NCBI GenBank assembly: GCA_003243955.1
Contig: QHCE01000024.1
Location: forward strand, 188-64,187
From: Acidimicrobiales bacterium
Lineage (GTDB): Bacteria > Actinomycetota > Actinomycetes > Mycobacteriales > QHCE01
DNA: 64,000 nt
Reading direction: 5' to 3'
Shown here: positions 1-18,232 of the stretch, piece by piece
Layout: each line of letters begins with the position of its first letter
Position numbering within the stretch: the stretch's first letter is position 1
The notes under the pieces: model-generated
Databases searched by the model: none
The model's input: the letters and a program-made list of their open reading frames with translations, nothing else
What the model was told of the DNA's origin: nothing
Translations under genes and position numbers: made by a program

Positions 1-498
1 TGAGTTATCCACAACCAGTGCTTGTGGCGAAGAATCCGATACCGGCGAACGCACTACGCTTACCGCGTCCCGCCCGATGCCATCCCCCTTACCGAAAGCC
101 GACCCGAACGGCACTTTCACCTTGGTATGACACTCCACCGTCAAAGTCTCGCCATCAGAACTCGCAGCCATCTGCAACTCTCGATCGTCGGCATAGAACC
201 GAGTCCGATGCTCCTCCACGGCCGACGCCACAGCTTCGGGCGAGAGCGGCAAAAACTTCTCCGAAGATCCTTTGTTAGTTAACACTTTATTCGAATCGGC
301 TTCTGCCGCTGCCCACGTTGCCGCACTGTCACATATCGATTGAATATTGCGTTGCGCTAAAAAAGCGGCGGTAGCTGTCGTCATCCCCATGATCATCAAA
401 ACCACGATTAGCACACACACCACGATCATGGGAAGCATGCTTCCCGCATCACCCCGTGGCAGGTGGCGGCGCAACGCACCCTTCAGCTTTCTAAGCAC
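1..498 (-). CDS. TadE/TadG-like pilus assembly protein (Rv3654c type); 3' end runs off the window
   Basis: Absent from the ORF track because it has no stop inside the window. The minus-strand GTG at 498-496 overlaps the upstream TAG (GTGCTTAG). It reads VLRKLKGALRRHLPRGDAGSMLPMIVVCVLIVVLMIMGMTTATAAFLAQRNIQSICDSAATWAAAEAD and stays open to position 1. GDxGS followed by a hydrophobic helix is typical of actinobacterial TadE-like proteins. Confidence 0.6.
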   Translation of the reverse strand, partial: MLRKLKGALRRHLPRGDAGSMLPMIVVCVLIVVLMIMGMTTATAAFLAQRNIQSICDSAATWAAAEADSNKVLTNKGSSEKFLPLSPEAVASAVEEHRTRFYADDRELQMAASSDGETLTVECHTKVKVPFGSAFGKGDGIGRDAVSVVRSPVSDSSPQALVVDNS

Positions 499-1015
499 CG
501 GATAATCGTCTCTTCGAGTTTCGCAACTTATCCACCTGCACCTCATACTGTGCGGTAATTGTTTTGGACGCTCCTTCGAAAAATGACGGCACTCCTGGGA
601 TGTCGAAGTCGAGCACCACGCACACCGTGAATCTCCCGCCGGCGTCCAGCGTGGCCGCTCCAGGATCAGGTGCAGCCGGCCCATTGGTCGAACACGAATC
701 ACCTGACTTCACGAATCGCAAGACTGCATCGGCTTTCACGCCTTGATCCTGCAGCGCGAGCCGCACTGCGTACTGTGCACGCTGCACACCTGTTGCCAAA
801 TCCGGCGCCTTAACAACAGCCCGGCCCGCCTCCCGTGCGGCCTGCGTTGTCCCTAACATGCTGCTCTGCACACTAAAAATCGCGATAGCAACATAGAACA
901 ACGGCACCAGAATCAAAATGCCAAGGAAGACAAACTCAATCGTCGCGGCACCACGATCGCCGCTGCCGAGCAACTGAAAATCTCGACGCCGGGCCTGTCG
1001 AAGCAGGCGCTTCAC
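491..1015 (-). CDS. TadE/TadF-like pilus assembly protein
   Basis: N-terminus GDRGAATIEFVFLGILILVPLFYVAIAIF matches the TadE N-terminal motif. It has 4-nt-type overlaps with both neighbours in the tad operon. Confidence 0.7.
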   Translation of the reverse strand: MKRLLRQARRRDFQLLGSGDRGAATIEFVFLGILILVPLFYVAIAIFSVQSSMLGTTQAAREAGRAVVKAPDLATGVQRAQYAVRLALQDQGVKADAVLRFVKSGDSCSTNGPAAPDPGAATLDAGGRFTVCVVLDFDIPGVPSFFEGASKTITAQYEVQVDKLRNSKRRLSGA

Positions 1016-1446
1016 GAGCTCTCCTTGATCGCGCGGCCACGCACGTCAATCGGCAACACGCCGGAGCCCGGTAGAAACAGTGCTGGAACCTTTCCCGAAC
1101 ATTGCACCTCAATCAAAGTCTCGCTACCTGCCCCCGGTTGTTCCCGACCTACACAACCCACCCGATCCGCCACCGCCCGGCTCGCACCGCGAGCAATCAA
1201 GTCAGTAGCAACCCGCGCGCCATCATCTGGACTGGAATCAGCGCTCGCCGCATATCGTGCGCCCTCAGCAGCCGAAGCCGTCACAACATTGCGCACATAC
1301 AGGTAGAGAACAGCTTGCACGATCAGCAAAGTCAGAAACAGCAACACGATGCTCACCATCAAAAACTCGGGTACCGCCGCACCTGTGTCACCGCGCGCAG
1401 CCCTACGTCTGCGACGCAAGAAGCCGTCCAGCCCAAGCTCGACCAC
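1012..1446 (-). CDS. TadE-like pilus assembly protein
   Basis: GDTGAAVPEFLMVSIVLLFLTLLIVQAVLYLY is a TadE motif, and the gene lies in operon context. Confidence 0.7.
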   Translation of the reverse strand: MVELGLDGFLRRRRRAARGDTGAAVPEFLMVSIVLLFLTLLIVQAVLYLYVRNVVTASAAEGARYAASADSSPDDGARVATDLIARGASRAVADRVGCVGREQPGAGSETLIEVQCSGKVPALFLPGSGVLPIDVRGRAIKESS

Positions 1447-1451
1447 CGTCG

Positions 1452-1667
1452 CTACCCGCCAGAACCCGAGACCACATTGTCGATCGCTTGAGTTACCGCA
1501 TTCACGATCTTGCCCTTGAACGCGGCGAAGATCGCCACCACCAGCCCGGCCGACATCACCGTCACCAACACCCAGCCCGGCACATCACCACGCTGCACGT
1601 CACCCAGAGCGAACCGGTTAACCCAGAACGGGAGTCGGCTCCATCGCTGCCGTATGCGCTTGATCAT
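1452..1667 (-). CDS. DUF4244-type Flp-like pilin
   Basis: 71 aa with GDVPGWVLVTVMSAGLVVAIFAAF, a single hydrophobic helix. It sits between tadC and tadE, as in actinobacterial Tad loci. Confidence 0.6.
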   Translation of the reverse strand: MIKRIRQRWSRLPFWVNRFALGDVQRGDVPGWVLVTVMSAGLVVAIFAAFKGKIVNAVTQAIDNVVSGSGG

Positions 1668-1838
1668 TCGTCTCTCCCATACTTGGGCTATACCGCAGAC
1701 CGCAATCTGCGGCGCATGCCTACCATCGGGCCAGCGTAATGCAATAGCCGCCTCGAAAACACTCCGTGCGCAATCTGTGGATAACGTCGACGCCAGAACC
1801 GGCGGTTTCCCTTAGACGTTTTCCCTGAAAACGGGGCG

Positions 1839-2792
1839 CTAGCCCGTGAGCAGCGTAATGTTGACCAGCCCCGGATACAGCGCAAATAGCACAGTGATCG
1901 GTAGCAGCAAAAACACCACCGGAAACATCATCGCAATCTCGCGCTGACCCCCGGAGGCCAGCAACGCCCGCTTGCCGGCCTCCCGCACATCAACTGCCTG
2001 CGCCCGCAGCACTTCGGCCAACGGAGTGCCGCGTTCCAGCGCGATCACCATGCCGTCGATGAACCGAGCGAGGACGTCCAAACTGGTACGGTTGGCAACC
2101 CCCTGCAGCGAAGAGATCAACGAAGCGCCCGACCGTGCCTCCGATAACGCCCGATGCAGCTCTATCGAAAGCTCTCCGCGGCACAACCGACACACCCGCT
2201 GCAGCGCGGAAACCGGCGACTCTCCAGCTGCCACCGACAACGCCAGCAACTCGGCGACCACCGGAAGCTCCTGCACCATGGAGCGTTCTCGGCGCCGCAC
2301 CGAGACCGTGAGCCACCAGTCCCGCCCCAGCACTCCACTCACCATACCGACGCCAATAAGTGCCACCGCGGCCAACAGATTGATCGAAACTGTCGCCACC
2401 GATATCAGCACTGCGGTCAGTAACCCACCCAGCCCGCCAAGCACACCCCACATGACCTGCTCGACACGAAAATCCTCAACGCGCTGCTCAGAGCCGAGCG
2501 CCGCGAGCCGAGTCCGCACCGACCGCGCACCGCCCAACAACCGCTCGAGGAAACCCCCAGCCCTGGTCAGCAGCGGCAACGCCAGGCGCCCTGCCGGCCC
2601 CCACTGATTCACCAGCTGGGCCGCCATACCGGTATCGACCGCAGTCCTCGGCGCCGCGGGACCCGCGGCTGGTCGAAGATACGGCTCGAGCCGATCCCCC
2701 AACCGAAGCCTGGCCGAACCCGGCGGGTTGATCGCCGCAAGCCAGCCTCCAGCCAGCATTAACGCGCCCAGTATCACCGCCAACAGGGTCAC
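1839..2792 (-). CDS. tadC: TadC-like type II secretion system F-family membrane protein
   Basis: Multi-TM T2SS-F-like sequence. The track ORF extends to 2954, but the GTG at 2792 overlaps the tadB stop as GTGA, so the shorter start is preferred. Confidence 0.75.
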   Translation of the reverse strand: MTLLAVILGALMLAGGWLAAINPPGSARLRLGDRLEPYLRPAAGPAAPRTAVDTGMAAQLVNQWGPAGRLALPLLTRAGGFLERLLGGARSVRTRLAALGSEQRVEDFRVEQVMWGVLGGLGGLLTAVLISVATVSINLLAAVALIGVGMVSGVLGRDWWLTVSVRRRERSMVQELPVVAELLALSVAAGESPVSALQRVCRLCRGELSIELHRALSEARSGASLISSLQGVANRTSLDVLARFIDGMVIALERGTPLAEVLRAQAVDVREAGKRALLASGGQREIAMMFPVVFLLLPITVLFALYPGLVNITLLTG

Positions 2793-3658
2793 GACAATAC
2801 CCGCCGTTCTTGAGGTAGCTGACCAATGCGCAGCATCAGCCGATAGGCAAGAAAACTCAGGCCCGCGCCAACCACAAGGAGGAACCTGCCTGAGGTTGAA
2901 TCGTAAGCCTCCAACGTTGTGGCCTGAGTCGAAAGCAGCAACAGCACGACCCACGGCGAGGCCACCGCCAACCGGGCCGCGTTCACCGTCCAGCCCTGCC
3001 TGGTCTCTAGCTCAGCTCGAGTGCGTGAATCCTCGCGTAGGAAGGCCGACAACGTGCGCAATAACCGTCCTAAATCCGTACCACCCACCTCGCGGGCCAA
3101 CCGAAGTGATTCACATACTCGGTCACCGATCGGGTCGCTCAGCTCATCCTTGAGGCCATCCAAGCTTTCAGCGAAACGCCCCGTAACCCGATAGTCGGCG
3201 GCGAACGTGCTGAAAGCGGGCCGCAGCGGCTCTGGGCCGCGGGTAGCCAACGCCGCCACGGCCTCGGGCAGCGACAACCCTGCCCGCACCCCAGACGCAA
3301 GGTTGTCAACCACCTCCGGCCAGATATCTCGCAGCTCCCGCAGCCGACGGTTCCGCATCCCTCGCACGGCCGCGGTCGGTGCTAGAAAACCAAAAATTCC
3401 GAAGCACACCGCCACCGAAATGCTGCGAGTCAGCACCACAACCAAGAATGTTGCCACCAACGCGGCACCTACCTGCACCCCCAGTAGCTGCCACGCCGAA
3501 ACACCACGCACTTCAGCTTGGCGCAGCAGCTGCCCGCGACGCCGCACCCACCGTGTCATTAAGGACACGGCCTCCGGCGGTTTCATCCGTGTTCCCGTAT
3601 AGCCAAGCCACATCAACAGCCCACCGAGGCCCACGAGTAAACCCAAAAACAGCCCCAC
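2789..3658 (-). CDS. tadB: TadB-like type II secretion system F-family membrane protein
   Basis: 289-aa membrane protein immediately downstream of the CpaF-type ATPase, with T2SS-F-like helices. Confidence 0.75.
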   Translation of the reverse strand: MGLFLGLLVGLGGLLMWLGYTGTRMKPPEAVSLMTRWVRRRGQLLRQAEVRGVSAWQLLGVQVGAALVATFLVVVLTRSISVAVCFGIFGFLAPTAAVRGMRNRRLRELRDIWPEVVDNLASGVRAGLSLPEAVAALATRGPEPLRPAFSTFAADYRVTGRFAESLDGLKDELSDPIGDRVCESLRLAREVGGTDLGRLLRTLSAFLREDSRTRAELETRQGWTVNAARLAVASPWVVLLLLSTQATTLEAYDSTSGRFLLVVGAGLSFLAYRLMLRIGQLPQERRVLS

Positions 3659-3660
3659 GA

Positions 3661-5199
3661 TTAATCACCTGCTCCTGGCGCCGACATAGCCGCCCTGGCT
3701 TGGCTTATGACAGCTGGAGACCCGCTCGAACCGTGAGTACGGTTCGAGCGGCTGCGATCTGGGACAGCACCTTGGGCAAGCAACGCGGCAAGGTCATAGC
3801 CGGCATAGCCGAATCGCTGTGGATGCGGCGGAAATCCCCCCGCCCGCACGAGTGCACCACGGGATGTGGTGAAGATGTCGGCAGTTTCGATGATTTGACC
3901 CTCGACTCGGCCCGGTAACGCAACAATCTCCGTCACCCTGCGACGCCCGGATGCCTCTAACGCCACATGCACGATCAGGTCGACGCTCGTCGCCACAGTC
4001 GGCACCACAAAGCTCGCTGAAATATTTTCTCCAGCCAGCAACGGCAGGGTGCACAGCTTGGTCACGGCCTCACGCGCGGAATTGGCATGCAGCGAACACA
4101 TGCCGGGTAGGCCGCTGTTGAGCGCAATCAGCATGTCCAACGCCTCAGCCTGCCGAACCTCGCCGACCAGGATCCGAGACGGACGCATCCGCAACGCCTC
4201 GACCACCAATCGGCGGAGCGGGATCTCCCCGGCGCCTTCCAGATTCGGCTGACGCGTCTGCATGGCAACCCAGTCGGGCAAGCCAAGCTGCAGCTCGAAC
4301 ACCTCTTCGCAGCTCACGACGCGCTGGGTGGCCGGAATCGCCGAGGCAAGGCAGCTCAGCATTGTGGTTTTCCCGGCCTGGGTACCGCCGGCCACGATGA
4401 TATTGAGTCCGGCCGCCACGGCAGCTTCCAGGAACCGGGCCGCCGCTGGAGTCAAGGTTCTTAAGGCAACCAGCTGGTCCAAGGTGTGTGCCCGAAGCAC
4501 AAATTTGCGGATGTTCACTGCCCAGTGCTCGCGGGTGATGTCAGGAATTACCACATGCAGACGGGAACCATCCGGAAGCGTCGCGTCCACAAACGGAGTA
4601 GAAAGATCTACCCGGCGTCCGCTGTATTTGAGCATCCGCTCCACCAGGTCCTTGATGTGATCGGTGGACAGCATGGTGGTCGTGAGTTCACTACGACCGG
4701 CTCGAGCCACGAACACTTGGCCAGGCCCGTTCACCCAGATCTCCTCGACAGCCGGGTCGTCGAGGAATCTTTGCAACGGCCCCAATCCGGCAACCGCGTC
4801 GAAAACCGTGCGGGCGGTAGCCTGTGGGTTCGCTATGACGGGTTGTGTGCCACCGAATGCCTGCTCGGCATGTTCAGCAAGTACGTCGGCAATGATGTGG
4901 TGCACCACGCTGGTTTGGGAAAATGGGTCCACTCCGCGGCGTCGGATCTGCTCGCGAACCGCGGACTCGATGAGCTCCACCACACCAGCTGGGGCAGTCG
5001 CTACCAGCGGACTCGACGGTCCACTTGGTGCGGAAGAAGGTGCGGGTACGGGTACGGTTGCCGCCTGGCGAACAGGCGGCTGGGCGCTCTGGCTTACTGC
5101 GCGCCCAGGCTGCACAGGCTCCAGCTGCGGCGCGCTCGGACGCGTGGGAGCCCATGCGCCTGGAGATGCGCCCGCTGCGGTAGGCAAGGAATCAGTCAT
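3661..5199 (-). CDS. tadA: CpaF/TadA secretion ATPase
   Basis: Walker A GGTQAGKTTML. Also has the ILVGEVR and HANSA motifs of the VirB11/CpaF family, and a long Pro/Ala-rich N-terminus. Confidence 0.9.
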   Translation of the reverse strand: MTDSLPTAAGASPGAWAPTRPSAPQLEPVQPGRAVSQSAQPPVRQAATVPVPAPSSAPSGPSSPLVATAPAGVVELIESAVREQIRRRGVDPFSQTSVVHHIIADVLAEHAEQAFGGTQPVIANPQATARTVFDAVAGLGPLQRFLDDPAVEEIWVNGPGQVFVARAGRSELTTTMLSTDHIKDLVERMLKYSGRRVDLSTPFVDATLPDGSRLHVVIPDITREHWAVNIRKFVLRAHTLDQLVALRTLTPAAARFLEAAVAAGLNIIVAGGTQAGKTTMLSCLASAIPATQRVVSCEEVFELQLGLPDWVAMQTRQPNLEGAGEIPLRRLVVEALRMRPSRILVGEVRQAEALDMLIALNSGLPGMCSLHANSAREAVTKLCTLPLLAGENISASFVVPTVATSVDLIVHVALEASGRRRVTEIVALPGRVEGQIIETADIFTTSRGALVRAGGFPPHPQRFGYAGYDLAALLAQGAVPDRSRSNRTHGSSGSPAVISQARAAMSAPGAGD

Positions 5200-5524
5200 C
5201 GAGGAGTCACCCTAGCGAAACTAGGCGCCCTAAGGGATAAATCTTCGGTGATCCTGTGGAAAAGGATGAGGAGCTCTAGGCATTCCACTACGTTGGCATC
5301 GAGTTGTCGCACGTTTATTTCGGAGGAAGCCGCTGCGCCTCCTCGCTCAAACTGTCAGAATGAACAACTGTGGCACAGGCAGATGATGACACGCCGATCG
5401 AAATCCGTTGTGAGAGCTTCCTTGTCGGCTTAGGCCCATTCAGGCCTCCGCAGGAAACAGTGGAGCTGTCTCGCAAAATTGACAAAATCATAGCCGAATA
5501 TAGGGCCTCGTCGACAAGGTCAGA

Positions 5525-7120
5525 ATGCTATGCAACGCCGCCAAAGTCGACCATCAACTTGGCGCTGAAGGAGCCACGGAGACTGAGCTTGATTTCCTGC
5601 GCCGGGAATTCACCGCGATTCCGAGCCAACTGGATAGGCTCGTGGGAGAGCTGAGCGAAAATTCAGGCAAAGTTCATGCGGCAGAGCAGGGGCTGCTTGA
5701 CGCACTTCGCAAACTGACCCGTGTAGATGCATCAACCATTAATGCCATAACCGATTCCCAGCTTAGAGGCCTGCAACAGCTGGAACAAGAACTCCTGAGA
5801 CGGGCTCAAGGGCTTCACGGCGATCTAGCGGGCTTGGATTCCGCCGTCAAGGCGAATCAGGACCAGCTCACCGCCTCGCTGCGGTCGCTCCGTACACTGC
5901 CAGAGCGGCTGAGTATGGGCTTTGACCCAGATCACGGGCCGCCGTGGCTTCGGGTGTTGCTCACTGATGGTACCGGCAAACAGCACGCGACCGTGGTTCC
6001 ACATATTCTTGGGCTCTTCGATGACCGAGACCCTGAGACTCCCACTATGGGGCGCGCTGCTTCGCTGCAGCCCTTTAGTCAGCCCACAGAGAAGAAGAGA
6101 TTCCGCCTACGAAGCGCGAAGCGTGCGGGGAAGCAAGCTGCACAGCACGATGATGTCCGGCGAATGGCGGCAGAGCACGCTGAGCTGGCGGAGCAGCACG
6201 GCCGGGGAAACTATCAAACTGCCTTCACCCGTGCCGCTAACGGTTCGACGCCAACCAGCCCAGTCGGAAACCGAATTATCCTCGCCAGCCTGACTGGAAT
6301 ACCAGTGCCGGGCCGTCCCGGTAGAAGCGCAACCGGCGCGCTGCTACTCGTCCGGCCGCAAACACCCGGAGAAATAGCAGCGTACTTATTCGTTGATGGC
6401 GATACGGGTTTTCTCGACCTTTCAACGACAAGAGTAGCCGAGGACATTTTCGCCGCACTTGATTCAGTTCCCCCGCTTGATCCAATCCCGCGTGACGCGG
6501 ATCGCGGAACCCTACAACCTAGTTGCACCAAATACTCCGACGTTGGCAAAGCCATCATCTCGGCAAAGCTGACTGAAGGCCTTGCTTCCGGTCTAATCCA
6601 GAACCGTCCCACGATCAAAGCCAAGCGACCTAGCGGGCTCGGACTAACGTGGCCCCACAGGTGGCGAAAAACAGCAGATGAAGCAGTCGTCGAAGGTGTT
6701 CCAGCAATGCTCGACGCGTACCGGGGATACCCGGGCGGTGCATACGTAGCTGCCTATCAAGCTGTTAACACCCCGGTGGGTTCGCTGCCGTCGTGGCCAG
6801 GTACCGATACCGCGCATGATCCGCTCTTGACCCCGAAGGATCTGGCTACAGCCATGCTGTCCCGCATCCGACGCGCACGACCCGGCGTAGCCGAACGAGT
6901 CTTGGAACACGCGGCCATTCCGGGGTCCGATAGAAGCCGTGAGATGACAGTTCTTGCGGGCACCGGCAAAAGGCAGCAACCCGGAACACTTCAACCAGCT
7001 CCTCCTCGCGCCCCGGGGACACAAGCTTCGCCTGTGGATAACCAACGCACCGCAATGACTACTCAGCCAAACTCGTCGCGTGGGCGTTCGGCTAAAACTC
7101 CGCGTAGACAGCGCGGCTGA
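5525..7120 (+). CDS. Hypothetical 531-aa protein: helical/coiled-coil N-terminus, basic disordered C-terminus
   Basis: Longest ORF in this stretch, with AAGG 5 nt upstream of the ATG and an in-frame TAG at 5501. The stop overlaps the start of the FtsK-like gene by 41 nt. I recognise no family. Confidence 0.5.
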   Translation: MLCNAAKVDHQLGAEGATETELDFLRREFTAIPSQLDRLVGELSENSGKVHAAEQGLLDALRKLTRVDASTINAITDSQLRGLQQLEQELLRRAQGLHGDLAGLDSAVKANQDQLTASLRSLRTLPERLSMGFDPDHGPPWLRVLLTDGTGKQHATVVPHILGLFDDRDPETPTMGRAASLQPFSQPTEKKRFRLRSAKRAGKQAAQHDDVRRMAAEHAELAEQHGRGNYQTAFTRAANGSTPTSPVGNRIILASLTGIPVPGRPGRSATGALLLVRPQTPGEIAAYLFVDGDTGFLDLSTTRVAEDIFAALDSVPPLDPIPRDADRGTLQPSCTKYSDVGKAIISAKLTEGLASGLIQNRPTIKAKRPSGLGLTWPHRWRKTADEAVVEGVPAMLDAYRGYPGGAYVAAYQAVNTPVGSLPSWPGTDTAHDPLLTPKDLATAMLSRIRRARPGVAERVLEHAAIPGSDRSREMTVLAGTGKRQQPGTLQPAPPRAPGTQASPVDNQRTAMTTQPNSSRGRSAKTPRRQRG

Positions 7121-10100
7121 CGCTCGTCTGCTTAATGTCATCGCCGCACCCCAGACGCCGCTACGGGTAGTGGCGGCGCGGTTGCTGGAGACCGTGGGAG
7201 TCTCGGCCGCGACGCCACTGTTCACCGCGGCCGGCCCGCTGGATCTTCGCGTCACTCTGGGTGAGAGCTCGCTTCGCGATGGAACGGTACTCAGCGTGGG
7301 TACACCGCTTCCGTCTGCTTCTCCAGCATTCGGTCCGCGGCTGGCCGTGATCAGCGGTCCAGACTCCGGCAGTTTCGTGCCACTGCGGCCGGGAGTCACC
7401 GCAATCGGCCGTGACCCTGGCTGTCAGCTGCACCTGCATGATCCTGAAGTTTCTCGCCGGCACGCGGTGGTCACCCTCGATGCCGAAGGCGTCTGGCTCA
7501 CCGACACTGGCTCGGCTAACGGCACCTTCCTCGGGGGAGGAGAACTCAACGGAACCAGGCTCGGCGAGCAGCCGATACCACTACCACCGCACACGCTAGT
7601 GCGCTGCGGAGGCAGTGTGCTTTGGCTAACCACAACCGGGCACGGCCCGGAGTTCGCGGCACAGTCATCACCGCGGTTGACGCCACTGCCCACCCATCCC
7701 ACGCTCGAAGGCGCGCTGGAACTGTTACGGCCCCCGCGGATCGTTGCGCCTACAGTGCCGCCAACGATCACCTATCCTCACGCTCCCCAGCAGCTGGCGG
7801 CACCATCGACCCCCTGGCTCGGCGTGATCCTTTCTGTCTGTTTACCGCTTGCTTTGAGCGGAGTGCTGTGGTGGTTTATGCGCGACTCCATGGGTGTGGC
7901 CGGCGTCAGCATGCTCGGGTTCATGGCTCTAACTCCCGTTCTGATGCTCACGCAGGTCCTCACCGATCGATGGGGGAGACGCCGCGCCGCGCGAACGGCG
8001 AACACCGCCCATCAAACCGCACTCGTCGCCACAGATCAGCGGCTAGTTGCCGCGCTACAGGAGGAGGCTCTCCGGCGCTACGCGCAAACACCGGACGCGC
8101 CCACAGTTGCCGACATCGCCCAGACCCCAGCGCTGCGGCTTTGGGAGCGGCGCCCCAGCGATCCAGATTGGCTGCGGCTCCGCATCGGCTTGGCCACACT
8201 CCCGGCTGAGTTAGTAGTACATCGTGGCGGCACCACGACAAGCACACTGGTACCACCCGAACGTCCACCGTTGCCGCTGGCCCCGGCCACCATAGAGCTG
8301 GGCACGGCTGGCGTACTGGGTATCGCAGGCAGTGGTAGCCAACAACTCTGCCAATGGCTCCTAGCCCAGCTAGCCACGCTGCACTCACCCAGCGAACTGC
8401 GGCTGGCGCTACTCACCGATGCCGACCGCGACACTTGGCAATCAGCCAGCTGGCTGCCGCACATCCACGGCGACCACGCACCGGGCGGTAACGGCATTGC
8501 CACCAATCCGGCGAGTCAGCAGGCGCTGGTGTCTTGTCTGGCAACGCTAATCCAACGTCGGGTGGCCAACTGCCACAATCCAACACAGCTCTTGGATCAG
8601 CCCAATGAGCCTGCTGTGGTGCTGCTTTGCGACTCCACACACAGCCTCGCTAGTCTGCCCGGTGGACGCAGCGTGCTCGATGATGGACCTAAGCAGCGGG
8701 TATACACGATCTATCGCAGCACCGACGCCCGCGCTCTGCCCGGACAATGTCGAGCCACCATCACGCTGCCTTCCGGGCTACAGCTGGCGGCCGGCGGCGC
8801 GCTTCGCGCCACCCTGGCCGTCACGAATGCGCCGCAGGTTACCGGAATCCTCCCCGAACTCGTCTCGACCGCTTGGAGTGATCAAATCAGCAGAGCACTA
8901 GCCCCGCTACGCGAGCGCGTCGGCGCCGACCAAACCCGCACGCTACCAACTAGCGCGAGCTTTTCTGATCTACTCAGCGCGGCTTTTGACTACCCCTGGG
9001 AGCAGGACCGCAAGCATGACGATCCGAGCCGCTGGCCGCAGGTGCGGCTCGCGGAGCAGATCTCGGCGCGCTGGCGGCAACAGCCAACGTGCACTGAAGC
9101 CGCCATCGGCTTCGATAGCCGTGGCCCGGTCAGTATCGACCTCGCCGCCGACGGACCACACGCGCTCATCGCCGGAACCACCGGCGCCGGCAAATCAGAG
9201 CTGCTACGAACCTGGATAGCTAGCCTCGCGCTACACAACCGGCCCGATGAGCTGAACTTGCTGCTCATCGATTATAAGGGCGGTGCGGCATTTGCCGAAT
9301 GTGCCGAGCTCCCCCACGTCGTCGGTCTAGTCACCGACCTTGACCCCGCCCTGACGTCGCGTGTGTTGAGCTCGCTGCGCGCCGAGCTGCAGCGTCGCGA
9401 ACGTCAACTGGCCGCCATCGGTGCCGGCGATTTCAACGAACTCGGCGAACTCAACGAACACCGCGAACTCGGCGCTACCGCGCCCGATGGTGGGCTGGCC
9501 AGGTTGATCGTCGTTATCGATGAGTTCGCCACGCTCACTACCGAGCTGCCAGAGTTGGTGACCGGTCTGGTGGACTTGGCTCGACGCGGCCGCTCGCTCG
9601 GTGTGCACCTCGTGCTTGCCACACAACGACCGGCCGGCGTTGTCTCCGCCGAGATCCGGGCAAATACGGCACTGCGCATCTGTCTACGGGTCACCGACGC
9701 CCAAGACAGCACCGACGTGATCGATACGACCGATGCCGCTCGTATTGACACAGGGGTGGCCGGGCGGGCCATCATGCGGCGGCAAGGTCAGCTCGTTCCG
9801 GTGCAGGTGGCGCACATCAGTCATCCGTGGCTTCCCCCACGGGCGGAGTCACGCAACGCTGCGTTCGTCGATATCCGGGCCATCTCATGGCACGGCCTCC
9901 CGCTCCTGGCAGCTTCCTCGATTGGCGGAGCCAGCACGCACTCCGACACTGGCTCCCGGCGAGCTGTTAGCGCGCTGCACTACCTGGTGCAGACCATCCG
10001 GCTCGCCGCGAGCCGTACGCGGCTGCGACAGCCAGCACCGCCGTGGCTACCACCGTTGGCTGAACGGCTGGCTCTGGCCGAGGTAAAAAGCATGAAAAGC

Positions 10101-11543
10101 CTCAGCCCCGCTGAGGGCGCGGTGATTGGTCTGCACGACATTCCACACGAGCAGCGGCAACAGCCGTACTCCATTCAGCTCGTAACAGCCGGACACATGT
10201 TGCTGGCCGGTGGTCCGCGTAGCGGCCGCAGCAGTGCGTTGCGCACCATTGCCGCGAGTTTGGCCGATCAGCATTCCCCAGAACAGCTACGGATCTTCGC
10301 TTGCGACAGTGGCGGCGAACTTGCGACGCTACAGACACTGCCGCACTGCGATGGGGTAGTGGCGCCAGACGACGCCGAGCACTGCCAGCGCGTGCTCCGC
10401 CGACTACGCATCGAGCTGCAACGGCGGCGGGTGCAACGGACCCCTACCACCGGGGACGCCAGGGAAGACAGGGCACCATGGTTGGTGCTGCTGCTGGACT
10501 CGTGGGAAACGTTTCGGCACAGCTACGACGATCTGCGGCACGGCGCCCTCCTAGGCGAGCTAGCTAGCGTGCTACGCGACGGCGGTGGGCTCGGGCTGCG
10601 CGCGTTCGTCAGCGGTGACCGCTCGTTGCTGGCATCACCGATTGCGACCTTGTTGGGCACTCGGCTGATCCTGCCGATGGCCGATGCCGACAGTTACGGC
10701 TTGGCCGGGATCGCTCGACGGGATGTTCCTCAGCAGTTCATCCCTGGTCGGGCCATCCTTCCCAGCACGCCCGTAACAACCATGCAGTTCGCGCAGCTCG
10801 ACCCCGACCCAGCGGTGCCGGAGCAGCCAACAACGTTGAACCGGCTAAGCGCTCAGCTTCGACAGCGCTGGCCACACACCGCAACACGTGCGATGCCCGT
10901 GCGTGCACTACCCCGATTGGTGGCACCGGACATGCTGAAACCGGCTACCCAACAGTGGTGCTTACCTATTGGGTTGGGCGGCGACAACACCGAAACCCTT
11001 GAGCTGGATCTCTCCGAGACGACCACGGCTCTGATTGCTGGCCCACCAGCAAGCGGAAAAACCAGCACTCTATTGGCTGTGGCAGCAGGTGCAGCGGATC
11101 AGGGGTGCAGGCTCATAATCGCAGCGCCGGGCCGCAACGCGCTGAGCTCCGCGCTATCCACCGCAAGTACAGCGGCCACAGCTGCGCAGCTGACATCGCT
11201 GCTCGATGCCGATTCTGGGCCGTGCATGATCCTGGTTGACGATGTAGAACTGTTGGCCGACAGCGATGTAGATGCGGCGTTGAGCGCGATCGTCTCGCTG
11301 GGACACCACCGAGTGGTGCTGGCTGGCGGGGCAGATGAGCTGCTCAGCATGTTTCGGGGCTGTACTGTAGCCGCCCGACGCTCTCGGGTAGGAGTGCTGC
11401 TGGCCGCACGTGCCGGCGACGGAGAGCTACTCGGGCAGCCCCGTCTTACTGCGGGCGGCGTGCTCGACGGCGCTGGGCGAGGTTTACTGGTCCAGCACGG
11501 CACGGTAACCGCGCTGCAAGTGGTGCAATCATGTGAGAAATAA
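7080..11543 (+). CDS. EssC/EccC-like FtsK/SpoIIIE ATPase with N-terminal beta-grasp-like and FHA domains
   Basis: FHA core is AIGRDPGCQLHLHDPEVSRRHAVV...GSANGTF, followed by two TM helices (WLGVILSVCLPLAL, GVSMLGFMALTPVLML). Three P-loop domains: GTTGAGKS/VVIDEF, GGPRSGRS/LLLDSW (degenerate) and GPPASGKT/ILVDDV. Confidence 0.85.
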   Translation: MGVRLKLRVDSAADARLLNVIAAPQTPLRVVAARLLETVGVSAATPLFTAAGPLDLRVTLGESSLRDGTVLSVGTPLPSASPAFGPRLAVISGPDSGSFVPLRPGVTAIGRDPGCQLHLHDPEVSRRHAVVTLDAEGVWLTDTGSANGTFLGGGELNGTRLGEQPIPLPPHTLVRCGGSVLWLTTTGHGPEFAAQSSPRLTPLPTHPTLEGALELLRPPRIVAPTVPPTITYPHAPQQLAAPSTPWLGVILSVCLPLALSGVLWWFMRDSMGVAGVSMLGFMALTPVLMLTQVLTDRWGRRRAARTANTAHQTALVATDQRLVAALQEEALRRYAQTPDAPTVADIAQTPALRLWERRPSDPDWLRLRIGLATLPAELVVHRGGTTTSTLVPPERPPLPLAPATIELGTAGVLGIAGSGSQQLCQWLLAQLATLHSPSELRLALLTDADRDTWQSASWLPHIHGDHAPGGNGIATNPASQQALVSCLATLIQRRVANCHNPTQLLDQPNEPAVVLLCDSTHSLASLPGGRSVLDDGPKQRVYTIYRSTDARALPGQCRATITLPSGLQLAAGGALRATLAVTNAPQVTGILPELVSTAWSDQISRALAPLRERVGADQTRTLPTSASFSDLLSAAFDYPWEQDRKHDDPSRWPQVRLAEQISARWRQQPTCTEAAIGFDSRGPVSIDLAADGPHALIAGTTGAGKSELLRTWIASLALHNRPDELNLLLIDYKGGAAFAECAELPHVVGLVTDLDPALTSRVLSSLRAELQRRERQLAAIGAGDFNELGELNEHRELGATAPDGGLARLIVVIDEFATLTTELPELVTGLVDLARRGRSLGVHLVLATQRPAGVVSAEIRANTALRICLRVTDAQDSTDVIDTTDAARIDTGVAGRAIMRRQGQLVPVQVAHISHPWLPPRAESRNAAFVDIRAISWHGLPLLAASSIGGASTHSDTGSRRAVSALHYLVQTIRLAASRTRLRQPAPPWLPPLAERLALAEVKSMKSLSPAEGAVIGLHDIPHEQRQQPYSIQLVTAGHMLLAGGPRSGRSSALRTIAASLADQHSPEQLRIFACDSGGELATLQTLPHCDGVVAPDDAEHCQRVLRRLRIELQRRRVQRTPTTGDAREDRAPWLVLLLDSWETFRHSYDDLRHGALLGELASVLRDGGGLGLRAFVSGDRSLLASPIATLLGTRLILPMADADSYGLAGIARRDVPQQFIPGRAILPSTPVTTMQFAQLDPDPAVPEQPTTLNRLSAQLRQRWPHTATRAMPVRALPRLVAPDMLKPATQQWCLPIGLGGDNTETLELDLSETTTALIAGPPASGKTSTLLAVAAGAADQGCRLIIAAPGRNALSSALSTASTAATAAQLTSLLDADSGPCMILVDDVELLADSDVDAALSAIVSLGHHRVVLAGGADELLSMFRGCTVAARRSRVGVLLAARAGDGELLGQPRLTAGGVLDGAGRGLLVQHGTVTALQVVQSCEK

Positions 11544-11660
11544 GAAATGAATGTAGGCACACCGAAATAGCATGCTGTGGACTTAAATACCCGCTGTGGA
11601 CAACCTTCTACCGCACGGCAGGCAGAGCAGAATTAGCGTTTATGACGTTAAGGAGGCACT

Positions 11661-12251
11661 ATGGGAACCATGACCGCTGCGAACACCGCGACCGCGCTGC
11701 CCTTTGGGCAGCCGTTGACAATTTCCGACCTCGCCGAGATGCCCGATGACGGCCACCGGTACGAGCTGCTGGATGGGGTGCTGATCGTGAGCCCCGCCCC
11801 CAGCTGGCCGCATCAAGAGGCGCAGGGCAGCCTTCTGGTGCAACTCAGACAAGCATGTACCCCGCAGTTTCGCGTGCTCGGTGCCCCGTTCGCGGTGTGG
11901 CCGGCAGACGACAAGACCGAGCTGCAACCCGACGTTCTAGTCGCCCGGTACGACGACCTCACGCACGCCGGTCTACCCACCGCACCAGTGCTGGCCGTGG
12001 AGATCCTCTCGCCCAGCACTGCGCTGATCGACCTCAACCTGAAGAAAGCCGCCTACGAACGGTTCGGCGCACAATCCTACTGGGTGATCCATCCGTTAAC
12101 CCCGGCGTTGTTCGTGTACGAACGGGGCGACAACGGGGAGTATCACCAGCGCGCCCACGTCATCGGCGACGAACCGTTCCACGCCACTCAACCGTTTGCC
12201 ATCACCATTGTCCCCAACAAGCTCATCGCCGGCCTAAACCCGACAAGCTAG
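11661..12251 (+). CDS. Uma2-family (DUF820) endonuclease
   Basis: PDDGHRYELLDGVLIVSPAPSWPHQEA and PDVLV motifs. AAGGAGG lies upstream of the ATG. Confidence 0.75.
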   Translation: MGTMTAANTATALPFGQPLTISDLAEMPDDGHRYELLDGVLIVSPAPSWPHQEAQGSLLVQLRQACTPQFRVLGAPFAVWPADDKTELQPDVLVARYDDLTHAGLPTAPVLAVEILSPSTALIDLNLKKAAYERFGAQSYWVIHPLTPALFVYERGDNGEYHQRAHVIGDEPFHATQPFAITIVPNKLIAGLNPTS

Positions 12252-12309
12252 TGGTTGTGTAATCGTTTGCATTGCTATGTGATGAAACGACCAGTTCAGC
12301 GGCAGCGCC

Positions 12310-12345
12310 TTTTTGCCAAGTTCTCCTAACTTGGCAAAAATTTTT
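12310..12345. terminator. Bidirectional hairpin terminator between Uma2 and mazF
   Basis: TTTTTGCCAAGTT-CTCCTA-AACTTGGCAAAAA is a perfect 13-bp stem flanked by A and T runs on both sides. Confidence 0.7.
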
Positions 12346-12361
12346 ATCGTGCACCACCTCG

Positions 12362-12709
12362 TTAAGCAATGTCGACGAGCTGCCGGAGCGCGAATCGGAT
12401 TGCCTCACGCTCCCGTTGACTTATGGCATCGGCTTTATGGCGCGACACAAGCCGGCCTCTTGAGACAGCTTTGATCTGATCGCACATCGCGTATCCAGCT
12501 CGACCAGCGAGCATGACCCCCGGCTGCCACGGCGCATTGCGGTTTGTACTCGTGCAGGGCACCACAACCGCAAGCTGATTCGGTAACGAGCACGCCAGTG
12601 GGGTTCCCACTACTATCGCCGGACGACGCCCAGCCTGCTCGGTACCGACCTGCGGATCAAATTCACACCACCAGACCTGCCAGGGAGTGAGTGCGGCGCG
12701 TGGAGTCAT
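12362..12709 (-). CDS. mazF: MazF/PemK-family toxin
   Basis: WQVWWCEFDPQVGTEQAGRRPAIVV is a PemK signature. The ATG at 12709 overlaps the antitoxin stop as ATGA; the track ORF begins at 12739. Confidence 0.75.
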   Translation of the reverse strand: MTPRAALTPWQVWWCEFDPQVGTEQAGRRPAIVVGTPLACSLPNQLAVVVPCTSTNRNAPWQPGVMLAGRAGYAMCDQIKAVSRGRLVSRHKADAISQREREAIRFALRQLVDIA

Positions 12710-12930
12710 TCGCGCACCGCCGCGTCTAGCTCCGCCCACTGTGCCGCCTCTCGCTGGTACTCGGCCAGTGCCTCGGGATCTGCTTCAAGTCGGGCAATCG
12801 CGGACACGGTCTCGCGTTGAAACAGCACAATCCGCAGGGCCTCGTCCAAACTGACGCCACCTAGTTCATCGGCCGCAATCCTGGCCAACGTGTCCCGATT
12901 CAGCATCGATACTCTCATACTTGTGTGCAT
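12706..12930 (-). CDS. Putative antitoxin of the MazF module
   Basis: Small acidic ORF start/stop-coupled to mazF. The start is ambiguous (12930, 12918 or 12906). Confidence 0.5.
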   Translation of the reverse strand: MHTSMRVSMLNRDTLARIAADELGGVSLDEALRIVLFQRETVSAIARLEADPEALAEYQREAAQWAELDAAVRE

Positions 12931-12951
12931 GCATCAAAGCATACACACAAG
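12920..12951. promoter_or_regulatory. Palindromic operator-like site at the 5' end of the mazEF-like operon
   Basis: CTTGTGTGCATGC-ATCAAA-GCATACACACAAG is a 13-bp inverted repeat with 1 mismatch, at or just upstream of the antitoxin start. Confidence 0.5.
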
Positions 12952-12966
12952 GGCTAGGTAGCCATC

Positions 12967-14033
12967 CTACTTGTGGAAAGTGACGTTACTACCCGAACCG
13001 CGACGGATGATGACCTGTGGTTCCCCCGAAATCGTGGAGGGTTTTTTATGCTGCTTCTTGGTTGAGGGCAGTGTTCTCGTAGTTGGCGGGGACTTCATTC
13101 CGGCGGCGTTGTGACGAGGCTGGTGATTGTAGAACTCGAACGCGTAGCGCCACTCGACTGAACTTCCCCAGATTTGATAGGGATTCGATTCTCCGAGAGG
13201 TTGATGACCATGTCGGCATTGAAGAAAGTACGAGCAGAAGATCGGAATCTTAGCCCAATGAGATTTTCCTGTTTGGTTCTCTTTAAGCCCAGGAGCCATT
13301 ACGGTAGTTGTTGTGACCGGGCCTGATTCCAAAATAACCGATAACGACGTCCATACCTACTTATGGGATTACAATGGAGGCTCTCTCGACGACCTTGTTA
13401 GACACTTCTCTGCTAGAGGATAAGGACACCAGTGGTCTGGGCTCTGCTCTAGGCCGACTAGCCCAAGAGGGGTTTATCTCTCGGAAGGAAGACGGAGATT
13501 ATGAGCTTCTCCCCGAGGGCAAGTGGGCACGTCAGGAACCTGTAAGGTTGCCGCTCCCTGCAATAACGGTGCAGAATCGGCCGCGGCGGCGGCCAAAGCC
13601 CGCTCAGCAGGTCAGGTACCTGCCACTTCCTGGTACTGATGAAGGCCGACGCCGTAGGGGCAGCCCAGGGCACCGTAACGCGTGACGTTGGCGTAGCGCG
13701 CCTGGAGTGTCTCCCGTTTGGCTTGTTCCATGGCGACTTCCCTCTGGTTTCGGCGTTCAGCCCTCGCGCGTTCGAGCTCCAGCTGCCTTTGAGTTTCAGC
13801 TTCGACCCGAGCCTCCAGCTCTGCAACGGTCTTACCGAGAACGTCTTCGAGGCTCCACCGTCGCGCCCAAAGTACCCTCGCGAGCCTCACGGTCGCGAGG
13901 GACCCAATTACCCAAAGTGCCCTCGTTGACCCCAGATCAGGGCCACCGCAGCGATCGGCTTATTCGTCTCAGTGACGCTCCGGACCGCTCCCTCATCGAA
14001 CTCCCGATCGTACTTCTGGCGTTCCTCTGGCAT
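12967..14033 (-). mobile_element. Degraded IS3-family element: frameshifted orfA plus orfB tail
   Basis: The ATG at 14033 (AAGGAG upstream) gives MPEERQKYDREFDEGAVRSVTETNKPIAAVA, an IS3 OrfA HTH. It then shifts frame (DLGVNEGTLGNWVPRDRE). The 12967..13332 ORF ends with VEWRYAFEFYNHQPRHNAAGMKSP, which looks like an integrase-core C-terminus. The region is low in GC. Confidence 0.5.
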
Positions 14034-14084
14034 CGCTACTCCTTACAGCGGATACCTCTACGCTCCTGGGAGAACCTCAACCCG

Positions 14085-14753
14085 TCAGCTACGACGAGCG
14101 GTAGCTAAAGAGGCGAGGATGGCAAACGCGGTGATGCCGAGTAGGAAGGCAATCGACGGCGTGATAGCAGCCGGAAACCCGTGTCGGGGATTGTGCTCGA
14201 GAACGCGAAGCGCCCAGGCGACCGGCGAAGCGGGAATAATAATGCTCAATAGAGTGACCATCGCAATGCCGAGCACGGCCGCACCGGGTCGGTGCAACAT
14301 GGGTGGCCCAGCTAGCGCGCCAAGCCCGGTGCCAGCCAAGGCGAACACGAGATGAATGCCCAGCCCCCCAACCCAGGTCCTCCAGCCGTAAACGGCCGTA
14401 GGGTTGACCAGCGCGGCCCAGCTCACAGCAAGCACAACCAGCGGAAGTGCCGCGATCACGGCGGAGGTCAACAGCGCTGCCTGCACCCGCAGCTGACCCC
14501 GAGCGGCCGCCGCGGTGATCTGCCTGGCGATCGGGTCTTCCGTACTGAGCAGCGTTCGAGTCACCCAGGCCGCGACGGGGAACAACGCGACCGCGGTCAC
14601 CCCGTAGGAGGGGACCGCGGGGCCCGAGGCGTCGGCGTAAACCAGCGCGAGCAACAGTACATAGACCAGCAGCGGTGGTACCCATCGTTGCGAGCGCAGA
14701 AAGCCCGCGAGCTGATAGCGACACAGTGCGCTCATCCGACTGACTCCACACAC
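14085..14753 (-). CDS. ABC-2-type transporter permease
   Basis: 222-aa protein with about 6 TM segments, overlapping the stop of the upstream ATPase gene. Confidence 0.6.
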   Translation of the reverse strand: MCGVSRMSALCRYQLAGFLRSQRWVPPLLVYVLLLALVYADASGPAVPSYGVTAVALFPVAAWVTRTLLSTEDPIARQITAAAARGQLRVQAALLTSAVIAALPLVVLAVSWAALVNPTAVYGWRTWVGGLGIHLVFALAGTGLGALAGPPMLHRPGAAVLGIAMVTLLSIIIPASPVAWALRVLEHNPRHGFPAAITPSIAFLLGITAFAILASLATARRS

Positions 14754-15604
14754 CGAACGGATAGCCCGTTCTGCAACGCCTTAGCAAGTACCGCGTCGCA
14801 ATCCTCGGCGTCGACGTGCAGGAGGATGCTATTGGAAGTGGTTTCGATGTGTCGTACACCTGGATGTCCGGCCACGTCGAAACTCTCGGGTTGACCAGCC
14901 AGTACCACGAGCATCACCCGCTCGAGAGGCGCGGTTTCCTGGGGCTGGAGGGCACCGGCAACGAGCACCAGACTCGAATCCGGAGCCAGTGCCCGAGCCC
15001 GAGCCCGCTGACCGTGATCGGTGAAGACCACGGCTCCGCCGGCATTCCGGCACGCTCGCACCTGCTCCATAAGGGCAAGCTGCGCGCTGCGGTCCAGTCC
15101 AGTGAACGCCTCGTCAAGAATCAACCATGCCGGGTCAGCGACCAGCGCCTGCGCAATCGCCACCTTCTGGCTGGTGCCTTTGGATAGCTCCCACATTGGA
15201 GTGTCGGCGATCTGTGGCGCACCTAGCAGGTCCAGCAGCTCTCCGCTGCGCGCGGCTGTCAGACGATCTGGCAGAGCACGGATCCGACCCAGGTGACCCA
15301 GATACTGACGGACGGTGAACCGCAGGCCCGGCGGAAAACGCTCCGGCACGTATCCCACCCGCGCGGGCAGCCCTGTGATCCGACCGCGGGTAGGTACGGT
15401 GACCCCGGCCAAAATGCGCAGCAAGGTGCTCTTCCCGCACCCGTTATCACCCTGCACATGAGTCAGGGTGCCTGGTTGCATACTGCACTCGATGTCTCGC
15501 AGCACTAGTGGACCGCGCAGCTGGTACCGCTTGCTGACCCCGTTCAGCAGCACTGCCGAAGGCGCCTGATCGGCGCGTCGTGCAGATCGCAGGGAACCCA
15601 CCAC
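14732..15604 (-). CDS. ABC transporter ATP-binding protein
   Basis: Walker A GDNGCGKST, signature LSKGTSQKV, Walker B WLILDEA. Confidence 0.85.
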   Translation of the reverse strand: MVGSLRSARRADQAPSAVLLNGVSKRYQLRGPLVLRDIECSMQPGTLTHVQGDNGCGKSTLLRILAGVTVPTRGRITGLPARVGYVPERFPPGLRFTVRQYLGHLGRIRALPDRLTAARSGELLDLLGAPQIADTPMWELSKGTSQKVAIAQALVADPAWLILDEAFTGLDRSAQLALMEQVRACRNAGGAVVFTDHGQRARARALAPDSSLVLVAGALQPQETAPLERVMLVVLAGQPESFDVAGHPGVRHIETTSNSILLHVDAEDCDAVLAKALQNGLSVRCVESVG

Positions 15605-15668
15605 CTATCACCAGTCTGAGGAGTTGCTGAGCCGACACCAAGCGGGTACCTAAACATGACAGTTAGAG

Positions 15669-17335: not shown

Positions 17336-17791
17336 TTACTCGCCCAGTTCGCCTTTCGCGTTCGTTGTACTCAGATACCGCGCTACCTGAGTAACGTAGC
17401 TACGGTATCCGGTGCGGGCAGCAGAAATAGCTAGCAATACCTTTGCATAGTCGATCTCTAAGTATTCGTGAACTAGCACGTTTCGCATGCCAGCGCTTGG
17501 CTGAAGCTCTTTAGCCAGCTCCTCAGTGAGTAAACCTTCATGCTCAGCGTCAACAAAAGACGCCCGATAGGTTTCCGGTGTCTTTCCGGTAGCCGCAACT
17601 ACGTGAGTATTAATTGCAACGGCAAGATCAACTAGCAAAGTTAGAATACGCTCCACCAGCAGACTGATGGACAGCTCATGCGACAGCTGGTGCTCAGTAA
17701 CATCACCGAGTTTGTCGAGCTCGCCTAGAAGACGGCGCATCATTCGTAGACGCCGGTACATGACGCCTTGCTCAGCAGCGTTTGGGGTCAT
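17336..17791 (-). CDS. hepT: HepT-like (DUF86) RNase toxin
   Basis: RNVLVHEY fits the Rx4HxY motif. The gene is directly downstream of the nucleotidyltransferase partner. Confidence 0.8.
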   Translation of the reverse strand: MTPNAAEQGVMYRRLRMMRRLLGELDKLGDVTEHQLSHELSISLLVERILTLLVDLAVAINTHVVAATGKTPETYRASFVDAEHEGLLTEELAKELQPSAGMRNVLVHEYLEIDYAKVLLAISAARTGYRSYVTQVARYLSTTNAKGELGE

Positions 17792-17794
17792 TCT

Positions 17795-18232
17795 CTACAC
17801 CCCCTCCGCCATGAGCTTGAGGTCCCATTTGCGCAACCAATCAGTGTCCATCCGCATGCATATTGCGGCCGCTCGAGCCTCAGCGTATGCTCCGATTTCT
17901 CTTTCATAGAGCGGAATACACTTCACTAACGCTTGTTCTTGAGCAACCGGATCAGCGCGAGAAAGATCCATAACATCAATCTCTGAAACACCCGTTAAAT
18001 CTGATATTTCATTAACGAGTTGAACAATGTCTCCAGAGTGATCTATCTCAAACAGAACTGCCACATCGAGGTCGTTAGGAGTTGTATTTTCCTTAGCCGT
18101 ACTACCAAAGACCGTTAAAACGCGGATGCCGCGCTCGGCACAAAAGATATCCAGCTCGCCGGAGCGCGCGGCGGCTCGAAGCCGAGCAAGTCCTTCGTGA
18201 GGAGTGGCCATACGCTCTACGATAACCCTCAA
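17795..18232 (-). CDS. mntA: MntA-like nucleotidyltransferase antitoxin
   Basis: FGSTAKENTTPNDLDVAVL matches the GSx10-11DxD nucleotidyltransferase motif. Confidence 0.8.
   Translation of the reverse strand: MRVIVERMATPHEGLARLRAAARSGELDIFCAERGIRVLTVFGSTAKENTTPNDLDVAVLFEIDHSGDIVQLVNEISDLTGVSEIDVMDLSRADPVAQEQALVKCIPLYEREIGAYAEARAAAICMRMDTDWLRKWDLKLMAEGV

Follow-up and report, generated by a model that had tools for sequence, protein, structure and literature searches.

Why does a coupling ATPase of the kind that serves type VII secretion systems (T7SSs) stand without other T7SS genes inside a tight adherence (Tad) locus, and is the open reading frame (ORF) that overlaps its start a working partner? 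The question arises from a stretch of 64,000 nucleotides from an Acidimicrobiales bacterium (assembly GCA_003243955.1, contig QHCE01000024.1, positions 188 to 64,187; hereafter the window). There, a 1487-amino-acid (aa) ATPase of the EssC/EccC class is encoded at 7080..11543 and a 531-aa ORF at 5525..7120, both on the plus strand and overlapping by 41 nt, just as an initial annotation of the sequence had described; that annotation had also suggested that the two form a minimal secretion module or a substrate-plus-motor pair. Based on our findings, we propose instead that the 1487-aa gene is functional and stands alone, as one member of a large EssC/EccC-class family in Actinobacteria, and that the upstream ORF is a frameshifted remnant and not an obligate partner. 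We regard this as probable, if well short of certain.

The ATPase gene is intact and under purifying selection: its ratio of nonsynonymous to synonymous substitution rates (dN/dS) against an 84%-identical orthologue (L011) is 0.22, compared with 0.11 for tadA and 0.51 for the upstream ORF. From its GTG start, the protein is laid out as a ubiquitin-like (Ubl) domain, an FHA domain, two transmembrane (TM) helices, a DUF, and three P-loop domains, D1 to D3. In a Pfam scan, residues 108-175 matched FHA (4e-14) and two separate stretches matched FtsK_SpoIIIE (4e-54); P-loop families matched a third P-loop region, residues 1312-1427. The TM helices, at residues 244-268 and 270-294 (7809..7961), exceed 1.6 in 19-residue Kyte-Doolittle windows. 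All of the Walker motifs quoted in the initial annotation were found. D1 (9063..9794; Pfam FtsK_SpoIIIE at residues 662-852) carries an intact Walker A, GTTGAGKS, and Walker B, VVIDEF, and these residues are invariant throughout the family. D2 (10107..10829), recognized from its sequence and its match to EccCb, has GGPRSGRS, with lysine replaced by arginine, and LLLDSW; the family-wide consensus here is GRS, so the replacement does not mark damage to the window copy. D3 (10947..11540; P-loop family matches) has GPPASGKT and ILVDDV. At this third Walker A the family consensus is GPPRSGRS, and the lysine is the exception here.

Comparison with curated models and solved structures places the protein in the same class. 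The NCBIfam EssC model (TIGR03928) aligned to residues 217-1341 with 473.3 bits, under its curated cut-off of 778.4, and neither EccCa (TIGR03924; 308 bits, cut-off 509) nor EccCb (TIGR03925; 287 bits, cut-off 347) reached its threshold. The FtsK equivalog model (NF007615) gave 72 bits against a cut-off of 1566, with the alignment confined to D1. The top sequence match in the PDB was Thermomonospora curvata EccC (4nh0; 9.5e-65, residues 664-1311), and other matches included YukB (9qks; 2e-53), EccC5, and FtsK at 1e-21. Taking these matches together with the hydropathy profile, the protein is predicted to be a T7SS-class multi-domain FtsK-like membrane ATPase that scores under the curated equivalog cut-offs, which upholds the earlier description of a triple-P-loop ATPase of the EssC/EccC class that has an FHA domain and two TM helices. 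A Joint Genome Institute call of this gene (P0005, 1457 aa) starts 30 codons downstream, at ~7170, and would abolish the overlap with the upstream ORF. We favor GTG 7080 as the start because the strands at residues 3-22 are conserved and are modelled confidently.

These strands belong to the N-terminal region, residues 1-220, which we modelled with AlphaFold2 from a 51-sequence family alignment. The model, whose mean predicted local distance difference test score (pLDDT) is 87, has a beta-beta-alpha-beta-beta unit at residues 3-73 and an FHA sandwich at residues 87-184. Within the first unit, strands 3-10, 15-22, 47-49, and 70-73 and helix 28-38 have pLDDT values above 90; from this model and a domain profile, the Ubl (beta-grasp) domain is placed at residues 1-75 (7080..7304). 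Built on the first ~80 residues of 31 members, the profile hits PDB chains of ubiquitin and Ubl proteins (3.8e-8 to 1e-6). Pfam YukD, the family matched most often, was found in the N-terminal domain of 5 of the 31 members (best 2e-4), and the window's own Ubl segment, searched on its own, gave no Pfam match. The beginning of the protein had earlier been called beta-grasp-like, and the modelled fold and the profile both agree with that. The modelled structure thus supports the view that a ubiquitin-like module, which in other T7SSs is the separate protein EsaB/YukD, is fused in cis in the window ATPase. The fusion extends through the family, including members beside WXG100 and kinase genes (P0010 and P0027). 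Garrett, Higginson and Palmer (2024, PMC11217815) described T7SSd, an FHA-type system of Actinomycetota, and did not report a separate ubiquitin-like gene in it; a fused Ubl domain might explain the absence of an EsaB/YukD gene there. The adjoining FHA domain (residues 87-185, 7338..7634) was also examined with Foldseek, where the top matches of its model were the phosphothreonine-binding FHA domains of GarA, OdhI, and FhaA. Its phosphothreonine-binding residues R111, S125, H128, and N147 are invariant or nearly so among the 51 family members, and the domain is predicted to be phosphothreonine-competent.

The family to which this ATPase belongs is large. When 5.8 billion proteins were searched, 106 clusters of 28-100% identity came back: a tight clade at 84-100% and 53-55%, and beyond it relatives at 28-38% from Kribbella, Actinomadura, Dactylosporangium, Pedococcus, Modestobacter, Rathayibacter, Leucobacter, Arthrobacter, Streptomyces, and many metagenome-assembled genomes. 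Neither Olsenella nor Bifidobacterium was among the named matches of this search. A metagenome scan confirmed 592 of 600 candidates, and 80 loci with flanks were kept. With a hidden Markov model (HMM) built from the neighboring genes, a WXG100 gene was found beside the ATPase (E<1e-8) in at least 41 of 85 independent loci, a lower bound given that many contigs are short. In two relatives, L016 (Dactylosporangium) and L017, the locus holds WXG100 genes, the ATPase, a membrane Ser/Thr kinase directly downstream of it, an 815-840-aa PASTA protein, and MoxR, DUF58, and TgpA genes. The last three, the TgpA-type gene being a transglutaminase, follow the kinase within 14401-20143 of L016 and 14371-20751 of L017, and descriptions of T7SS components do not include the trio. 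From the WXG100 neighbors and the composition of these two loci, we take the ATPase family to be T7SS-class. In the 64-kb window itself, no gene was found for a WXG100 protein, Ser/Thr kinase, PASTA protein, EccB, EccD, EccE, mycosin, EssA, or EssB; for WXG100, neither Pfam nor the family-derived HMM found a member, the best match having E=1. The ATPase is therefore an orphan within these 64 kb, as had been noted before.

The 531-aa ORF exists as annotated, with an ATG start, but it is the in-frame remainder of a frameshifted gene of ~590 aa. Its orthologues have ~55 additional N-terminal residues that include the motif EIRCESFLVGLGPF. In the window, the ancestral 5' end of the gene (VAQADDDTPIEIRCESFLVGLGPF...AEYR) lies at 5370..5504 on the plus strand, beginning at GTG 5370; it encodes the most conserved motif of the upstream-gene family, and its first ~45 codons are now out of frame with the ORF at 5525..7120. 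In agreement with this, tblastn matches residues 4-62 of the intact orthologue P0002 to 5370-5540 in another frame. A DNA alignment with L011 and L008 places a 1-nt deletion within 5501..5507 (TATAGG-GCCT, gap at ~5504/5505), and an in-frame TAG occurs at 5501-5503, ahead of the ATG at 5525, which has a weak AAGG 5 nt before it. The identical deletion occurs in the assemblies L002, L004, and L007, making four independent assemblies of this lineage with the window. By inspection, we rejected a programmed frameshift at 5504: there is no slippery heptamer, and the shift needed would be -1 on TAT-AGG-G.

Decay of this gene is not confined to the window, where the frameshift lies near residue 50 and the N-terminal motif is gone. 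In L008 a frameshift lies near residue 357, in three assemblies, and in L014 near residue 285; the L103 copy is spread over three frames and its C-terminal half is absent; the L100 copy is in halves of 275 and 309 aa, in one frame with a single TAA between them. Only L011 has an intact gene, of 594 aa. Of six lineages examined, five thus carry a broken or split copy (leaving the window's aside, four of five), and the ATPase is intact wherever this could be checked, despite the broken copies beside it. Measured against L011, residues 1-400 of the upstream ORF have a dN/dS of 0.3-0.5, and in the final ~130 residues the ratio climbs to ~1-2. The upstream gene is under relaxed constraint, and the C-terminal tail of its protein evolves neutrally. 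The 531-aa ORF is thus decaying and is not a conserved or obligate partner of the ATPase. Its family probably once encoded a cargo or accessory protein, which would fit the confinement of its members to the interval between tadA and ATPases of this clade.

By analogy with what is known of EssC and EccC, we suggest how the stand-alone ATPase may work. Anchored in the membrane as an oligomer, it would recognize helical substrates and drive their export. D1 would be the motor that hydrolyses ATP, and D2 and D3 would regulate its activity and dock substrates. The FHA domain would read a phosphothreonine mark, placed by a kinase whose gene lies next to the ATPase in some relatives but far from it here, and would couple assembly or activity to that mark; the Ubl domain in cis would take the role of the separate EsaB/YukD. 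The WXG100 partner and the cargo would be encoded outside the 64-kb window, or would have been lost. Several points weigh against this proposal. With no WXG100, kinase, or other T7SS gene in the window, an export function rests on genes that are unseen, and the ATPase falls below the NCBIfam cut-offs for EssC, EccCa, and EccCb. The 41-nt overlap suggests translational coupling of the upstream gene and the ATPase; taken with the dN/dS of residues 1-400, it means that the truncated 531-aa product may retain a role. Finally, the recurrent Tad neighbors may point to a Tad-related job instead of classical WXG100 export.

The last of these points can be developed into the main alternative, which we judge rather unlikely, in which the ATPase has been recruited to the Tad pilus machine, for co-localization through TadZ, for the export of pilus-associated or contact-delivered effectors, or for Tad-dependent DNA transfer; the tadA-divergent subgroup would then no longer depend on a neighboring WXG100 gene. 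In the window, the ATPase lies between tadA on one side and tadZ and cpaB on the other, an arrangement that the initial annotation had recognized and that the gene positions confirm. The Tad genes to its left (491..5199, minus strand, divergent from the ATPase unit; Pfam T2SSE, T2SSF twice, and TadE) are tadA (3661-5199), tadB (2789-3658), tadC (1839-2792), a 71-aa flp-like gene (1452-1667), and TadE-like genes at 1012-1446 and 491-1015. For tadA, the best NCBIfam model is TIGR03819, "TadA family conjugal transfer-associated ATPase," at 258 bits, below its cut-off of 373. To the right, tadZ (CbiA/ParA-like, 19978-21381) and cpaB (SAF, 21385-22140) are also on the minus strand; tadZ weakly matches the actinobacterial Ssd/CpaE model.

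Among the relatives, Tad genes lie within 10 kb of the ATPase in 16 of 85 independent loci, and in 11 of the 37 that have at least 10 kb of flank. They are of two types, that of the window (TadA 59-65% identical) and that of Kribbella. In L019, L021, and L057, the upstream ORF is absent and the ATPase is directly divergent from tadA, with a gap of ~200 bp and no gene between. A deeper synteny is seen on the other side: the window, L020, L032, and L059 share the order ATPase (plus strand), pruA (minus strand), DUF6912, tadZ, cpaB, and p214, and in L025 the pruA-DUF6912 part is seen before the contig ends. The ATPases of L020, L032, and L059 are 35-38% identical to that of the window, and each has a WXG100 gene divergently upstream. 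Since this gene order is common to loci at such distance, the ATPase slot is old and not a recent insertion. The recent part of the neighborhood is the filling with toxin-antitoxin, insertion sequence (IS), and Uma2 genes.

The same theme has been reported in Bacillota, where T7SSg and T7SSh "always" adjoin Tad genes and T7SSf has a TadZ-like component; whether this co-location in a few Bacillota is a coincidence was left open (PMC11217815). A literature search for an actinobacterial T7SS-Tad link found only this Bacillota report. It had been suggested in the initial annotation that the ATPase might cooperate with the Tad machine, and the recurrence makes this plausible; as for the possibility, also raised there, of an ordinary conserved neighbor of Tad loci with an already assigned function, the ATPase is indeed a recurrent neighbor, but no function has been assigned to it.

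Adjacency on its own, however, does not establish function, and the flanks of many family members are free of Tad genes, while many members do have WXG100 genes. The binomial tail for Tad adjacency is ~5e-13 under a background of ~1.2%, a rate that is assumed and not measured. Moreover, the housekeeping gene pruA is part of the same synteny, and the linkage is possibly, in part, frozen gene order. If the association is nonetheless meaningful, Ubl-FHA-EssC-type ATPases and Tad pili might be functional partners, in a relationship that has arisen or persisted independently in Actinomycetota and Bacillota, with the ATPase of the tadA-divergent subgroup, including that of the window, acting without a WXG100 protein encoded nearby. 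We consider this broader idea rather unlikely as matters stand; the partners might assemble together at the pole by way of TadZ, deliver effectors on contact, or take part in DNA transfer linked to Tad. As a separate observation, the tadA beside the ATPase in the Pedococcus locus (L019, 4588-9816) is truncated to 232 aa and is accompanied by a SIR2 protein, a Rep protein, a serine recombinase, and a type I restriction system, a block that looks like a mobile-element insertion into a Tad locus.

Another possibility is that the two overlapping genes form a working module after all, with the 531-aa protein as a dedicated substrate or adaptor of the ATPase. The genes are co-oriented and overlap, and copies of the upstream family have turned up nowhere except between tadA and ATPases of this clade (the window clade, L100, and L103). 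In having paralogues, evolving fast, and being inactivated often, the family is like polymorphic T7SS cargo, and its basic C-terminal tail is conserved in character. We nevertheless judge this possibility improbable: the frameshift has cost the window copy the most conserved N-terminal motif of the family, most lineages have lost an intact gene while keeping the ATPase, the tail evolves neutrally, and no WXG100 or LXG similarity was found. It also fits poorly with the distribution of the two genes, the ATPase being widespread and the upstream gene limited to a narrow clade, and with L008, a 54%-identical sister lineage in which a defense-like pair (908-aa Ppl/Lamassu-like ATPase and 378-aa SLFN/pAgo-associated protein, within 11997-15849) sits between the 541-aa upstream gene and the ATPase. 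From that insertion, the tadA-ATPase junction appears to act as an insertion hotspot.

As for the 531-aa protein itself, it is predicted to be soluble, with no TM segment, and has a pI of 9.7, a helical insert, and a basic tail. The initial annotation had described some 130 helical or coiled-coil residues at its N-terminus, and this description does not survive comparison with the paralogues. In L100 (7038-10044) and L103 (6325-8435), two paralogous genes lie between tadA and the ATPase: one, of ~390 aa (L100_394), is intact and has no helical stretch, and the other has the helical insert and is split (L100) or broken (L103). Since the stretch is missing from the ~390-aa paralogue, the "coiled coil" is an insert flanked by the conserved motifs IxCxxFxVGxGPF and GFDPDxGPPW, and not an N-terminal targeting hairpin. 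A WXG100 or LXG identity for the N-terminus of the 531-aa protein, proposed earlier as a check, was rejected: Pfam gave no match at E<=0.1 (only sub-threshold coiled-coil matches were seen), the WXG100 HMM gave E=1, and hhalign a probability of 2.5%. Pfam, NCBIfam, and PADLOC gave no family match for the 531-aa ORF, and PADLOC and Pfam gave nothing significant for the upstream-gene family and its paralogues. The first search found four clusters related to the 531-aa protein; a profile search of 1.8 billion representatives gave 9 matches, mostly fragments; and a word-indexed search for further members added only P0118, a fragment of the broken L014 copy. An AlphaFold2 model of P0002 from a 3-sequence alignment had a pLDDT of 33 and was unusable.

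That the ATPase is an FtsK-like DNA translocase or a MADS/Ssp-type defense ATPase in an accessory island, as the PADLOC matches of D1 to mad8 (2e-45) and SspH (2e-32) and the toxin-antitoxin pairs, Uma2 gene (PDC-S03), and IS remnants nearby might suggest, is very improbable, for those matches extend no further than D1's generic FtsK fold, the EssC model far outscores that of FtsK over residues 217-1341, the membrane-anchored EssC layout and the family-wide WXG100 neighbors point to secretion, and the slot is ancient and lies beside the housekeeping gene pruA.

The rest of the window gives the setting of the ATPase. Genes were called by a greedy longest-ORF procedure together with database calls, calling based on GC content at third codon positions having failed at ~60% GC. 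Between the ATPase and pruA lies an accessory mosaic (11661..15604) made up of Uma2 (11661-12251, plus strand; PADLOC PDC-S03), a PemK toxin-antitoxin pair (12362-12930, toxin gene on the minus strand), IS3-type transposase remnants (12967-13332 and 13908-14033, minus strand), and an ABC transporter pair (14085-15604). This block is missing in L020, L025, and L032, where pruA follows the ATPase directly. To the right of the ATPase, the minus-strand genes are, in map order, pruA (which exceeds its NCBIfam cut-off), HepT/MNT and ParE toxin-antitoxin pairs, DUF6912, a HAD hydrolase, tadZ, and cpaB. None of the filling at 11661-14033 and 17336-18715 (Uma2, PemK, IS3 remnants, HepT/MNT, and ParE) occurs in the syntenic L020 and L032. 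The other ~40 kb of the window is housekeeping: a TrpRS/TyrRS-type synthetase, secA, hpf, mtrAB, acs, eno, ftsB, ppx, mazG, mfd, and an iron ABC transporter. A scan of 5100-12400 for sigma-70 promoters and terminators found nothing above shuffled sequences except one hairpin after Uma2. This hairpin (12310-12340) has a 13-bp stem flanked by A and T runs and lies between Uma2 on the plus strand and the PemK toxin gene on the minus strand; from its sequence, it resembles a bidirectional terminator and may end a transcription unit made up of the 531-aa ORF, the ATPase gene, and Uma2.

Our reading of the ATPase as a stand-alone T7SS-class protein can be set against the systems described so far. 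It resembles EssC/YukB from firmicute T7SSb in its FHA-bearing N-terminus, two TM helices, DUF, and three FtsK-like P-loop domains. EssC, however, has been described with two degenerate FHA domains (PMC11217815), whereas the window ATPase has a single one with its phosphothreonine-binding residues intact; in contrast to T7SSb, its Ubl domain is fused in cis and not a separate EsaB/YukD, and no EssA, EssB, or EsaA was found in the window. EccC of T7SSa (T. curvata 4NH0 and EccC5) is the best match among solved structures, comes from the same phylum, and shares the D1-D3 logic, but EccC is without FHA and the window is without EccB, EccD, EccE, and MycP. The closest parallel in description is T7SSd, whose ATPase TsdC bears an FHA domain with a conserved phosphothreonine-binding motif (PMC11217815), as does this actinobacterial ATPase; TsdC was compared by description only. 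The L016 and L017 loci, with their WXG100, membrane Ser/Thr kinase, and large extracytoplasmic proteins, resemble the TsdA/C/D/I set of T7SSd. TsdA (WXG100) and TsdD (Ser/Thr kinase), both present in those two relatives, are missing from the window. In the parts of the supplements of PMC11217815 that were consulted, neither accessions for TsdC, nor sequences of TsdC, TsdH, or TsdI, nor genera of the ATPase relatives were found. The Bacillota systems T7SSg, T7SSh, and T7SSf share with the window a T7SS ATPase beside a Tad locus or a TadZ-like gene, but these systems belong to another phylum, the ATPases TsgC and TshC are without FHA, and the loci retain WXG100 and ubiquitin-like genes. With FtsK/SpoIIIE translocases, the likeness is the RecA-like P-loop fold of D1, seen in the FtsK structure matches; the window ATPase differs from them in having three tandem domains and an FHA domain, and it matches EssC and EccC far better.

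The diversity of T7SSs beyond mycobacteria and firmicutes is only starting to be mapped, and this locus bears on it in several ways. The two-gene "module" is not a general unit, its second gene being a decaying, clade-restricted ORF. What draws attention instead is the recurrent T7SS-Tad linkage together with the fused ubiquitin-like domain. The latter offers a simple explanation for the "missing" EsaB/YukD in actinobacterial FHA-type systems. This actinobacterial ATPase family is broad, and adjacency to Tad genes recurs in it with two Tad types and between deeply diverged members, so that a T7SS-Tad connection can be put to the test in genera that are cultivable, such as Kribbella and Pedococcus. 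The arrangement of this motor next to a Tad locus may be functionally meaningful.

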